From: Albugo candida
Lineage: Eukaryota
Direction of reading: 5' to 3'
Assembly: GCA_040437565.1 (NCBI GenBank)
Contig: JBDOQK010000015.1
Location: 186,001-250,000, forward strand
Length of the DNA stretch: 64,000 nucleotides
Part shown: positions 1,718 through 7,149 of the stretch, piece after piece
How the letters are laid out: every line of letters starts with the position of its first letter
Position numbering within the stretch: position 1 is the first letter of the stretch
The notes under the pieces: model-generated
The model's database searches: none
The model's input: the letters and a program-made list of their open reading frames with translations, nothing else
Told to the model about the DNA's origin: nothing
Program-made: the position numbers and the translations under genes

Positions 1718-1866
1718 GTCACATTTTTNNNNNNNNNNNNNNNNNNNNNNNNNNNNNNNNNNNNNNNNNNNNNNNNNNNNNNNNNNNNNNNNNNNNNNNN
1801 NNNNNNNNNNNNNNNNNNNNNNNNNNNNCAAGAAAGCTGCCATAAATCACTACTGTTTTGTTCACC

Positions 1867-3414
1867 ATGCGCTACAAGATAAGCATCGTAGTAATGATCG
1901 TCCTAAGTACCTGTTTTGAGAGCACGCTTCTCAACATAGCTACTGATGTTGATGAGCAGAAAGGTGCTCCCACACATGAGTACCTATTTGGCAGAGATAT
2001 GATTGATTTTCTGCAGTATCAGGTTTGCCATACGCCAGACCTCAGCGGGAGCGTAGAAGATTCCGGATGTAACTATGAGACCGTAGATAAGGCCGTCTCC
2101 GAACACTTTCATCCACTATTAGAGGAATTATCTCAGCTACGTTTTTTTCGCTACTTTAAAGTGAATTTGGGAAAAGAATGTCCATTTTGGGTTGATGATG
2201 GCATGTGTTCCAGCATCGACTGTGCTGTTTGTGAATGCCCACAACATGAGATACCTCACACATGGTCTAAAGTGGAAAAAACCATTCTGGCGACTTTGAA
2301 ACCCAAAATAGAGACCAAAAAGTCGGATGGAACCACATCCGATGCTCTTGGTAAACCGTGTTCAGATCAAGCAGGAGAAAGCGCTCTCTCTTGGGTAAAC
2401 AAACACGATGCATTTTCTGGTGAAACCTACCAAGAATGGGAGGATGGAGACGAATCTGAAGTTTGGAGTGAGTCTGAAGATGACACTAACATGGTCTACA
2501 TCAATCTATTAGAGAATCCGGAGAGTTATACTGGATATAGTGGATACCAGGCTACACGGATTTGGGACGCAATTTATAAGGAAAACTGTTTTGTCCCTTC
2601 AGTAGGAATGTGCTTCGAAGAACGCGTGTACTACAAACTGATCAGTGGTCTACAAGCTTCCATCAACACTCACATTGCCTTGAAATACAAATATGGAGAG
2701 TCTTGGGGACCAAATCCTTCTTTGTATGTAGAACGCGTTGGAAAGCATCCTGAGAGATTGCACAACTTGTATTTTGTACACTTGTTCGTTATGAGAGCAC
2801 TCGGTAGATACCGAGATGAATTACTGCAGTATGATTTTTCTACTGGCGATGTAAAAGAAGACAAGCGTGTGGTGGAGATTCTGCGTCGTGTGGTTCTAGA
2901 AGAGAAGGAAAAAGCAGCTTGTCCCGTGGAAGGCCAATCTGTGCTAACGGGATTTGATGAGCAAGCTCTATTCCGAGTGAAGCGCGGTAAAATGAGCGCG
3001 GAGCAATATTTGGTTGCTCAATCAGAAAAGCGCCGCATTGAAAATCAATTTCGCGAGAAATTCAGAAATGTCACTCGAATTATGGATTGCGTGAGTTGTG
3101 AGAAGTGCCGGTTATGGGGGAAGCTTCAGATATTGGGACTAGGCACAGCAATCAAAATTCTTCTCGCTGAAGACATCAAACGACTTCCAAAACTACAACG
3201 TAATGAGATTATCGCTCTGATAAATGTTGCCAACAAACTTGCTCAGAGTATCAAAGGAGTAAAACTGCTTCGCCGACTCGAGCTTTTGGACACCCTCAAG
3301 ACGTTTGGGGTCATTGTTGGCATAGCAATCGCCTTCGTCGCATTGATCATTCTTTACAAGCGAAAGCGAGTAAAGCGATCTGAAAAGAGAAAGTCTAAAG
3401 AGAAGTCACAATAG
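1867..3414 (+). CDS. ERO1: ER oxidoreductin 1 with signal peptide and C-terminal TM helix
   Basis: FFRYFKVNL..ECPFW, LLENPESYTGYSG, MDCVSCEKCRLWGKLQ (CxxCxxC). First ATG is at 1867. Confidence 0.95.
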   Translation: MRYKISIVVMIVLSTCFESTLLNIATDVDEQKGAPTHEYLFGRDMIDFLQYQVCHTPDLSGSVEDSGCNYETVDKAVSEHFHPLLEELSQLRFFRYFKVNLGKECPFWVDDGMCSSIDCAVCECPQHEIPHTWSKVEKTILATLKPKIETKKSDGTTSDALGKPCSDQAGESALSWVNKHDAFSGETYQEWEDGDESEVWSESEDDTNMVYINLLENPESYTGYSGYQATRIWDAIYKENCFVPSVGMCFEERVYYKLISGLQASINTHIALKYKYGESWGPNPSLYVERVGKHPERLHNLYFVHLFVMRALGRYRDELLQYDFSTGDVKEDKRVVEILRRVVLEEKEKAACPVEGQSVLTGFDEQALFRVKRGKMSAEQYLVAQSEKRRIENQFREKFRNVTRIMDCVSCEKCRLWGKLQILGLGTAIKILLAEDIKRLPKLQRNEIIALINVANKLAQSIKGVKLLRRLELLDTLKTFGVIVGIAIAFVALIILYKRKRVKRSEKRKSKEKSQ

Positions 3415-3446
3415 TGTAAATCCTTTACACTATGGTAACGAGTTTA

Positions 3447-3471
3447 CACCGGTGGACATTTAAAATGGCCC
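3447..3471 (+). repeat. Terminal inverted repeat (Fanzor/guide-proximal end)
   Basis: CACCGGTGGACATTTAAAATGGCCC, preceded by TA. Confidence 0.93.
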
Positions 3472-3580
3472 AGCTAAAGTCGGCAAATCAAAGTCCCTCC
3501 GTCAGGCATTTCAGCCCATGTGTAAATTGTGATTTTATGCTGTCGATGCAACAGCACTGTCCGCCTCAGGCGGTGTTGCG
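3447..3580 (-). ncRNA. Putative Fanzor omegaRNA scaffold (5' boundary uncertain)
   Basis: Lies between the Fanzor 3' end and the element end. Hairpins at 3548-3579 and about 3504-3517; 7-bp complementarity between 3520-3526 and 3443-3449. Expression is not shown. Confidence 0.6.
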
Positions 3581-5486
3581 GCTCTACTCAGGTATGTCGG
3601 GCGGCTTCTGCCCGCCAGTGATTCTCTTGTAAGTCGCGCGGTGTTGATGGCTGAGTTGACATCTCTGTTCCATAGCTTATTGCACTTTTTGCAAGCCAAT
3701 AAACCATGTACTAAGCGGAGACGTCGCTCGTTTTCTGCCAGTTTCTTCTTGGGCTCTAAGCGAACTCGAAACTTCTCACACTTTGCATCTTCCTGCTGAC
3801 AGTGCGAACACTGACAACTCGTCCTGAACTCATCGACCAAGTAGACTTTGTAGCCCCCATTGCGAAGCAGATTGCGAAATCCCTTTCCTTTCGTTGGTTC
3901 TTTAAACTTCCGATGTTTCTTCTGTTCCGAGTCAACAATACCGATGACGACCTCTTCAGGCTTTTTTAATTTCTGAGCCAAGCGATGTAGCATTTTCTGT
4001 TCGGATTTGCGAGTGTTCCAGAACCTGTTCAGTTTCAGTTTGCGGTAGATTCGAGCTTTGTAGGAAGTTTCTATTTTGGAGTTGACCAGGAGCTTTGCCT
4101 GCACATATGCCTTGAATCCTTCAAACGACAAAGTTTTATGGTTGTAGACCGTCAAATCAGTCTCCCACTGTGTGATACTGCGTTCCTCGACATACTCGTG
4201 GTTCTTGGCGTTCTGTATGATCTGGTCGTATTTCTTCTTTTTGGTCTCTTGTCGGCGCTGATTCTGCGTGTATCTGAATTGTTCACTTGCGTCCTCATTG
4301 GCACAGTACAGTAGGTCGCTCATATTGGGATCGATGCCGATGACTTTGCGCTTCGAGAGCTCATCTATTTCGCTTCCCGTGATGTCATCAATGTACTGCT
4401 CTGGTTGCACTACTGCTTTCCTCTTCGGCGTCTTCTTACCATACAAATCACTCCTGATGAATAGTAAAGAAGCCGAAACGCCATCAGTGTCAATCATATT
4501 ATTGAACCGATACTTCTTCATAGCAAACTCTTTCTTGTTGACATGAAAGAAAGTGCCCCAAATCATGGCTTTGTTCCTGACGAGTTCTCCTGCTGTCAAG
4601 AGCTTCGACTTTGCTCCTTGATCCCACAATAGATGAACGAGAGTGGTTGTATCCAATGTGATATGCTTCGGAATCAGGCTGGTTCTCAGAGGACAGAAGC
4701 TTCGGGGTCTTCGATTCGCTTGTTCAACAAACGCTGTCATCTTCAGCATAGCAGGGTAATAGTCTTGTGGCTTGCACTGAATGTCGTAATAGATTAAAGT
4801 CTTCTCAAAGCGGCTCTTCGACGGGAGAATAATTTTCTTGTGATCACGAATCCATAAGTGGTAACACACATGCTATTTGAATGGCGAATTGTCGACACTC
4901 AATAGATCGTTTTTGATATCCCTCAGGGTCGGCGTCATTTTCCGAATCGATGCATCTCTTTCTCTATTGGTTTTACGAATCCGACGAATGCGGCTTTCTA
5001 GGTCATGTTTCTGCTATGCTGTGTTCACGTAGGATTCCACGTATTCAACATAATACGCCTTGATATTAGTCTCGAAAATGGTCACGACTTGAACCGCTGC
5101 ATAATCTAAGACAGTGCTCAGGTATTTGTAAGAGATTGCGGTGTGTTTTCGGGTAGCAATGGAGCAAAATGTTCATTGTAAAAAGCTGTCAGAGTGTTTC
5201 GCAAGGCTTGCATCTTTGCTGAAGGAGGCCGACCGAGCGGAGTCTGCTGGTAGACAGTTTTGAAGATCGTATCCACCAGCTTGAGGTCTACTTTGAGACT
5301 ATCATCGATTCGATGAATCAAATACAGCTTCAAGAAGAACAGAGATCTGCTGACTATCTTGTCGACAGTACAAACAGATGAGGTGATCGTTTCTCCTTTC
5401 GACTTGAGTTTGATGATTGAGGCCAGACTGGTCTTCAAAGATTTGTACTGGGGTAATCAGGGATCTGGTGGGTCTACAAATTCCAT
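3535..5486 (-). pseudogene. Fanzor1 (TnpB/Cas12-like RuvC nuclease), about 650 codons, disrupted in the N-terminal third
   Basis: RuvC-I VIGIDPN, RuvC-II VYLVDEFRTS, zinc finger CSHC...CKKC, RuvC-III WNRDVNSAIN. Reconstructed from ATG 5486 (MEFVDPPDP) through stops at 5457-5459, 5014-5016 and 4873-4875 and one frameshift near 5135. Confidence 0.9.
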
Positions 5487-5900
5487 ATGTTGTGTGTTTT
5501 TCTATATTGTTCCCCGGGGTTTTATTATCAGATTTGAAACGCACTTAGTTTTTCTGCAAATAATATCGAGGAAGCCGTTTAGGATCTTTTTGCTGATCTT
5601 TACTGCACCACGTGTGGTGATCTTTTGTGACGGCTTTGGCGATAGACAGCCACGGACGAGCCAGCTTTCCAGGAGTGTTTGCTCCGGGTATGAGGGTATA
5701 TGAAAAATATGTCCTTATATCCGGTATCAACTCTAGTAATTGGCGTTGCCTATCCGTGTCCTGATCCAGATCACCGAGCTAGACGCTAGAATGCTCGTCG
5801 AGACCAAGGATAGCAACAACTTTGTCACTAAGTTGGCGCTGTTCAGCAGCGTAAAGATCAGCCTTCGCTCTCATCTTATGCACAAGACATATATATATGT

Positions 5901-6933
5901 TTATGTTTGTTTATACTGCTTCGGCGACATGAGTAGAGTGGAATCGCGTGGTCTTCGCCTCTGAGGATATTCACGACGTCTATAAGCGTACCGAAAATAT
6001 TCTCGGTAATTTGATGGCTTGATCATGCTGATGACTCTCACTATGTCTGTACGAATACCCTGTATGTTGCGGGTGTGAGCTGTTGACATGTGATATTTGA
6101 ATTGATTAAACCACCCCTCTCTAGCGTTTGTCTGAGGGTTATAAGGCACACTGTTTAAGCCAGATGGTTCCCGAATCGGCTATCAAGGCACGAATAGAGT
6201 GACCTTTGTGAGCCCCGGCGTTGTCCATAAAAATAGATAGCCACGTGAACGGTTATCATTTATGAGTCTAGTCAAGAGAATGACCATTCTTTCTGTCGTT
6301 GGCTCCTTGGTCATACATTTCCCAACCCAACAAGCTGCGGCTTGTGATTGCCCCGACAAAAGTGTGTTTTGTGAATACCTGGTTGTTATTTGTGACCTGT
6401 ATGCATCGTTCACCCAAATCGCATCTGCTGTGTGCTCTATACATAAATGGCGTCAGCGAAGTTTCGTCAATGGATATGATTCGATCAATAGGATGTGCAT
6501 CCGTCAAACGGTAAAATGCTCTGAGTTGTTGACTTCAGTTCACTGGCTGCCTGTATCTTTGTCTGGGAAAATGACCATGACGCGTCCTTTTTCTTGTCAA
6601 ATTATTTTCCCTGTCGACTCGTGATAGGTGTCTTGCTGAAATATCTATCCTTGGAAAACGTGCTTGAATTGCACTCAACAGCTCTGTAGAAGATATAGTC
6701 TGATGAGTTCTGACATATTGAACCGCCCATGCGGCTTGCTCCTGTGTGATTTTGTAGGATATAGGATCACGGTTTTGACGCTTCAGAGAGTGAATATCAC
6801 GAAAACGACGCGTCCAACGTGTAAGTGAACGTTTTGGACAAGAAAAAGCCCTCGCGGTGACTTGCCGGTTGTGTGACTGATTCAAATAATGTTAAACAGC
6901 GGCAACTTTGTAATCCTCTGACTTATGCTTAAT
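5901..6933 (-). pseudogene. IS630/Tc1/mariner DD34E transposase, frameshifted
   Basis: Fragments KHKSEDYKVAAV*HYLN plus HTH region (6535-6933), IISIDET (D1), FMDNAGAH (D2 at 6223-6225) and VPYNPQTNARE (E at 6117-6119). D2 to E is 103 nt, i.e. 34 codons plus 1. Confidence 0.88.
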
Positions 6934-7092
6934 TACAACCTAGAATATACTGGCATTTTAACGGATTTCNNNNNNNNNNNNNNNNNNNNNNNNNNNNNNN
7001 NNNNNNNNNNNNNNNNNNNNNNNNNNNNNNNNNNNNNNNNNNNNNNNNNNNNNNNNNNNNNNNNNNNNNCTGGCATTTTAACGGATTTCACA

Positions 7093-7117
7093 GGGCCATT
7101 TTAAATATCCGCCGGTG
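7093..7117 (-). repeat. Terminal inverted repeat (transposase-proximal end)
   Basis: GGGCCATTTTAAATATCCGCCGGTG followed by TA. Its reverse complement matches 3447-3471 with 2 mismatches. Confidence 0.93.
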
Positions 7118-7149
7118 TAAAAGCAGTACTTCAACTTCAATTTAGAGCA

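Follow-up and report, generated by a model that had tools for sequence, protein, structure and literature searches.

Right end of a mariner-type transposon encodes a predicted omegaRNA scaffold

In the window (the 64,000-nucleotide stretch of Albugo candida contig JBDOQK010000015.1 analyzed here), the minus strand from 3560 to 3443 very probably specifies the omegaRNA scaffold of a Fanzor1 nuclease carried by a mariner-type transposon, as judged from sequence comparison. One predicted fold is common to the right ends of 137 related loci; it consists of a hairpin (SL1), an A-rich linker, a closing stem (P1), a small hairpin (P2), and a stem (P3) that runs into the terminal inverted repeat (TIR). 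The closing stem of this predicted fold reaches two host bases past the target-site duplication (three in the sister group) and covaries with the flank.

The host element and its genes

The element (3447-7117) is a single-copy, decayed IS630/Tc1/mariner transposon with a broken Fanzor1 gene. Its 25-bp right TIR (3447-3471) and left TIR (7093-7117) are identical at 23 of 25 positions. Both are bordered by TA (3445-3446, the right duplication, which is paired in P1, and 7118-7119) in a TT-TA-AA context. A run of 100 Ns at 6970-7069 is a false gap that arose from a 20-bp overlap written twice (window 6950-7089); contigs from two sequencing runs join 6949 to 7070 and bridge it, so that the true element length is about 3,550 bp. 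In run X20, a 90 to 99% relative resembles the window up to 3443 and then continues into a different flank. It represents an independent insertion and thus an independent check of the boundary at 3443. TA lies on both sides of the window element and in 50 of the 51 sites of relatives for which both ends were available. The 55 both-end loci of relatives yielded 0 empty sites, and the length of the duplication therefore rests on symmetry and on the published record of PGv-1.

The Fanzor1 pseudogene (3535-5486, minus strand) retains the TDG motif (TDGVS), the RuvC D-E-D motifs (IDPN, DEFRTS, NRD), and a zinc finger, and its protein matches PF07282 above the cut-off. With a profile built from 18 homologs, the best solved relative was SpuFz1 (E 4.5e-67), followed by PpFz1 and then GtFz1 (E 9.8e-30). 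The gene is interrupted by one frameshift near 5127-5142 and by three premature stops (about 5458, 5015, and 4874). Its in-frame stop is TAA at 3537-3535; 88 nt separate it from 3447, the final base of the element, which is the distance originally noted. The decayed transposase gene (5910-6933, minus strand) is 35 to 37% identical to intact open reading frames (ORFs) in related elements (E down to 3e-62), and an intact ORF from a related element is recognized as Pfam DDE_3 above the cut-off.

Within its own genome the element gave one match in a DNA search, and two matches in a TIR search, both of them this element. Eight more Fanzor-like matches (25 to 59% identity) are short or contain stops, and the RNA model described below matched none of these eight loci. 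No intact Fanzor gene was found in the assembly, all such counts being lower bounds; the RNA-model check covered the Fanzor-like loci, and diverged gene-less copies could remain. Since both genes are broken and the assembly yielded no intact Fanzor, the window copy is probably inactive, a relic whose predicted fold is intact while its Fanzor and transposase genes are not. The locus itself is an ordinary relic.

The element is flanked by host genes for ERO1 and aldehyde dehydrogenase. The ERO1 reading frame (1846-3414, plus strand; Pfam ERO1, E 4.5e-112) has its stop 32 nt from the element end, and because the element begins this close, the ERO1 3' untranslated region probably crosses the omegaRNA in antisense. 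A contig of presumed RNA spans 3163-3646 and gives neither strand nor ends.

Predicted fold of the right end

All motifs named in the original prediction were recovered on the minus strand (a slash marks the element boundary): GCAACA and TGTTGC enclosing CCGCC-TGA-GGCGG and the 7-nt ACAGTGC at 3579-3548, TTTACAC at 3526-3520, GGGC-TGAAAT-GCCT at 3517-3504, and GTG/TAAA at 3449-3443. The minus strand of 3443-3580 folds at -45.9 kcal/mol (z -3.57), and 0 of 200 shuffled sequences were as stable. This fold closes TTTACAC on GTG/TAAA and includes the small hairpin; it contains two hairpins instead of a long bulged stem at the 5' side. An Rfam search returned two chance-level matches only.

On the basis of minimum free energy, pair probabilities, and covariation in relatives, the predicted scaffold (3443-3560, minus strand) begins with a CAG leader, the 5' end being placed by conservation. 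SL1, an 8-bp hairpin (3537-3557, minus strand; pair probabilities 0.92 to 1.0 in the window fold), overlaps the last seven Fanzor codons and the first stop base. It is followed by a single-stranded, A-rich linker of 10 nt (3527-3536, minus strand), whose length and CA.A motif are conserved, and by a three-way junction. In P1, the 5' strand UUUACAC (3520-3526, minus strand) pairs with 3449-3443, that is, with the final three bases of the TIR, the TA duplication, and the two host bases AA beyond it (3443-3444, minus strand). The small hairpin P2 (3504-3517, minus strand), which is backed by covariation, is missing in a few relatives; the 5' strand of P3 (3493-3501, minus strand) pairs with TIR bases 3457-3450, its first three pairs having probabilities of 0.98 to 0.99 in the window.

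The 5' domain had originally been drawn as one long bulged stem (3579-3548), which we now regard as very improbable. The 6 plus 5 bp of complementarity do exist in the window, and the inner hairpin CCGCC-TGA-GGCGG (3561-3573, minus strand) has a pair probability of 0.7. The outer GCAACA/TGTTGC pairs, however, are complementary without being used in the predicted fold (probability 0.0), and the long stem reaches -14.1 kcal/mol as against -19.2 kcal/mol for the two-hairpin alternative. Across 26 rows, in a poorly aligned region, the outer helix is paired in 50.0% and the inner one in 36.4% of cells; the whole stem, at 43.6%, stays within its controls (39.9% when shuffled and up to 49.4% when slid). 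Among 155 proteins, the six outer pairs could be encoded in only 2 of 19 distinct close protein tails, both of them near-identical copies of the window element, while the seven SL1 pairs could be encoded in 14 of 19, which is an upper bound. SL1 (3557-3537) excludes the long stem; it is the conserved 5' element. The inner hairpin, a stable counterpart of which occurs at that position in 2 of 25 relatives, probably lies outside the core scaffold.

Relatives and covariation

Because the window element is single-copy in its own genome, covariation was measured across relatives. From 420 confirmed viral loci and 420 metagenome loci, the 80 best of each set were fetched; 159 of the fetched loci matched the C-terminal part, and 139 of these gave a TIR-like end and 20 no end call. 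Two calls (L104 and L137) were dropped as false, leaving 137 of 159 loci with a TIR-like right end. The motif used for calling ends included the flank and tolerated up to three substitutions; when the other 22 loci were searched without regard to the flank, no further credible end emerged. Thinning to less than 90% identity left 71 representatives, of which 51 belong to group A, the group with P2, and the other 20 to group B. Alignment A3, made from sequence only, combines the window sequence with 50 ends of group A; L100 was omitted for its long insertion. The relatives compared as DNA are 32 to 64% identical to the window element in protein, whereas those at 57 to 67% were compared as proteins, by the upper bound on pairing used above. 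Neither a single-protein scan of viral contigs nor a scan with a degenerate SL1 motif found anything, and two loci obtained from prokaryotic genomes were left out of the analysis.

The covariation check across homologous ends that accompanied the original prediction was run, and P1, P2, P3, and SL1 all covary. Overall, 89.6% of A3 cells are paired, compared with 79.0% after shuffling; the covariation score is 0.322 versus 0.134 (0 of 500 shuffles reached it), and slid controls gave at most 0.095. These cells count related sequences and not evolutionary events. The complementarity of TTTACAC to GTG/TAAA holds up well, 97.8% of P1 cells being paired in the 51 ends, with compensatory changes at two of the seven pairs (C-G to G-C in three rows, and U-A to A-U or G-U in five). 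On a quick tree, the five rows with a TATA flank amount to three changes in two places, of which well-supported branches, set against the labelled groups, force only one; neither P1 swap is forced to more than one origin. P2 is paired in 87.9% of cells, with both-side changes at all four pairs and the window row one column out of register there, and P3 in 82.4%, with both-side changes at five of seven pairs. RNAalifold recovers P1, P2, and P3 unprompted.

For SL1, 26 rows (the window and 25 insertion-free ends) were used: 93.7% of 207 cells are paired, and seven of the eight pairs show compensatory changes. When rows with inserted hairpins are included, the four basal pairs of SL1 are formed in 177 of 192 cells (48 of 51 rows), with shuffles reaching at most 131. 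About half of the group A ends (among them L108, L018, L114, and L129) carry extra hairpins inside the 3' side of SL1 with its basal pairs kept. The scaffold is therefore modular, through these extra hairpins and through the loss of P2 in L048 and L124. An RNA model built from 25 group A ends detected all five of the untrained loci with known ends on which it was tried (L018, L108, L150, L143, and L035).

A check allowing for pseudoknots had likewise been proposed. A blind scan of all column pairs found nested helices and one stray pair only, and no pseudoknot. In TnpB and Fanzor2, the reRNA has a pseudoknot at the 3' end of the scaffold (PMC10711439), and here that end is a nested stem.

The nearest named proteins (59 to 63% identical; clusters P0005, P0009, and P0017) come from Coccomyxa green algae, and the window element shares its TIR with giant-virus elements; taken together, the algal protein kinship and the viral TIR hint at horizontal spread. 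Among the fetched loci, the closest DNA-level relatives, L093 and L094 (64%), have a longer and different right-end region ending in GAG/TAAAA, and the RNA model did not match the right end of L093, the one of the two on which it was tried. Four viral loci (L075, L025, L049, and L077) hold a third ORF of 220 to 340 amino acids on the opposite strand between transposase and Fanzor, as cargo; such an ORF would not fit into the window element. Directly after the L096 element the end-junction 7-mer is repeated, the sole case among 118 flanks.

Pairing beyond the duplication

Of 120 flanks, 111 could be anchored. All 72 anchored group A flanks have both host bases beyond TA paired to the internal strand: the +3 pair is UA in 66, AU in 5, and GU in 1, and the +4 pair is UA in every case. 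Position +5 is paired in 18 of these 72, whereas group B has U-A there in 35 of 39 flanks. Flanks become variable from +5 in 79 distinct group A flanks and from +6 in 41 group B flanks.

In 34 of 45 sites, the left flank shows the right one in mirror image, and much of the flank pairing is therefore attributable to the target choice of the transposase. Among asymmetric sites (45 of 47 sites were anchored), the right flank pairs where the mirrored left flank would not in 10 and the reverse holds in 1 (sign test, p 0.012); visual inspection shows the single exception (L142) to be mis-anchored and places the unanchored L091 with the majority. In our reading, selection through the stem or through the target-adjacent motif (TAM) explains this orientation bias, which may also stem from asymmetric target capture by the transposase. 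We consider it an even bet that the scaffold of mariner-borne Fanzor1s extends over the duplication and on to the end of the right half-site favored by the transposase (TA+AA, TA+TA, or TA+AAA), that its internal strand tracks the host sequence there, and that this sequence filters insertions: at asymmetric targets, only those oriented so as to complete the stem and the TAM would have a functional guide and be retained. If so, selection would act on the host flank as a portion of the RNA, and each member's closing stem would reveal its TAM. In the literature consulted, no account of flank covariation or orientation bias was seen; one may be contained in figures (among them the supplementary figures of PMC11423790) or in subscription papers.

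The same RNA might instead have its guide directly after TA (from 3444) and a TAM of TTTA, with the two extra pairs formed only in free RNA and reflecting the palindromic target preference of the transposase. We think this doubtful, yet it has some weight, as a preference for TT-TA-AA alone yields most of the pairing, given the mirrored left flanks, and the SpuFz1 scaffold ends at TA when its sequence in Table S3 and the target oligonucleotides of PMC11423790 are compared by eye. Against it, the internal RNA strand changes with the flank (the five AU and one GU at +3), and the +5 pair is gained in group B and not in group A. Moreover, GtFz1 has paired bases at the last four scaffold positions, TAAG, which match the end of its TAM, TTAAN, again by eye. 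By eye, too, SpuFz1 pairs its TA (PMC11423790).

It is highly unlikely that the complementarity is a signal at the DNA level, namely the end junction repeated internally in inverted orientation for use by the transposase, with no RNA fold involved. TTTACAC does equal the left-end junction, TTTA/CAC; but G-U wobbles are common in P1 (UG in 15 rows at one pair), covariation also occurs in SL1 and P2, which have no relation to the TIR, and the layout agrees with experimentally defined Fanzor1 RNAs.

Proposed function of an active copy

Under the preferred reading, an omegaRNA scaffold that includes the two host bases, the transcript would pass the Fanzor 3' end and the element end and fold into SL1, the linker, and the three-way junction. 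By analogy with tested Fanzor1 systems, SL1 would be the protein-binding hairpin, contacting RuvC/TNB, and the transcript would be trimmed to the scaffold and about 15 nt of flank. P1 would adjoin the guide, for which the next 15 or so host bases, starting at 3442, are the candidate (3428-3442, minus strand; the length follows the 14 to 15 nt of SpuFz1). Were the element active, its complex would cleave empty sites that present the TAM (T)TAAA followed by a guide match, and repair from an occupied copy would restore the element (restorative homing). We infer transcription, protein binding, the guide start at 3442, the TAM, and homing from such analogies. Guide-like matches elsewhere in the genome were no commoner than in a reversed control (19 versus 69).

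Beside the element, 3405-3439 forms a hairpin with 16-bp arms (14 matches) that spans the ERO1 stop and contains the sole perfect 10-bp hairpin found in the window as well as both window matches to TTTACACTA (0.3 expected). In a longer transcript it would, according to the predicted fold, sequester the guide. Two sites in it, TA-GTG-TA (3412-3418) and TA-CAC-TA (3426-3432), resemble 3-nt mariner-type excision footprints of this element. Their sequence suggests local hopping of the element, an inverted duplication being the alternative; the footprint-like 11-mer showed no genome-wide enrichment (32 versus 95).

The analysis provides a covariation-backed scaffold for a large mariner-Fanzor1 group found in giant viruses, green algae, and the window host. 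It also offers a way to locate the guide boundary and to predict the TAM, which would be useful for reprogramming these nucleases. If it holds, the orientation bias would be population-level evidence that Fanzor activity decides which insertions persist, and it bears on the question of what Fanzors do for their transposons.

Comparison with known systems

The elements and their RNAs have been described before (PMC10432273, PMC10530073, PMC3627910, and bioRxiv 10.1101/2024.09.03.611062), and the comparisons below follow the available parts of the published descriptions. That a right-end Fanzor omegaRNA scaffold includes the TIR and pairs with the target duplication, the core of the original prediction, is borne out by the P1 covariation and was already published. 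Fanzor1 scaffolds have been predicted to incorporate TIRs and duplications and have lost the pseudoknot (PMC10711439); reported structures place the 3' duplication within the scaffold (PMC13565253); and three solved Fanzor1 complexes each contain an SL1 of about 7 bp (PMC11423790).

The omegaRNA of SpuFz1 (Spu-1 of Spizellomyces punctatus; PMC10432273, PMC11423790, PDB 8gkh), the closest solved protein, resembles that of the window: it lies between the stop region and the right inverted repeat, and SL1 is followed by a terminal stem that pairs the TIR end and TA beside a 14- to 15-nt guide. Its scaffold has 75 nt with one stem after SL1. The window scaffold is longer, at about 115 nt, and branches into a three-way junction; its SL1 lies within the final Fanzor codons, it pairs two additional host bases, and the element carries a transposase gene in cis. 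The compactness originally ascribed to the window RNA is not borne out by this comparison, and a stop-to-end distance of 88 nt or less is found in 41 of 51 relatives. The GtFz1 omegaRNA (Guillardia theta) also overlaps the last codons (17 amino acids) and has a multi-stem junction, and by our own reading its scaffold ends in TAAG with TAM TTAAN. It differs in its length of 150 nt, in loci reported without inverted repeats and transposase, and in a more distant protein.

PGv-1 and PUl-1 (PMC3627910) and the giant-virus families in Chlamydomonas (bioRxiv 10.1101/2024.09.03.611062) combine the same IS630/Tc1/mariner transposase with a Fanzor1 and have TIRs of 24 to 29 bp and a TA duplication, as do elements of the window type; PGv-1, with its TA duplication on record, begins with CACC like the ends studied here (PMC3627910). 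In contrast to them, the window copy is chromosomal, single, and decayed; no RNA structure was seen in the descriptions of those families. The SfAV Fanzor1 reRNA (PMC10711439) has a three-stem fold with TIR and duplication in the scaffold and no pseudoknot, and it extends about 15 nt beyond the duplication, as predicted here. It belongs to another transposon family, and the available description mentions neither pairing beyond the duplication nor flank covariation. A Fanzor1 scaffold that holds TIR and duplication and lacks a pseudoknot is thus already published, and the detail added here is the stem reaching host bases, its covariation with the flank, and the orientation bias.
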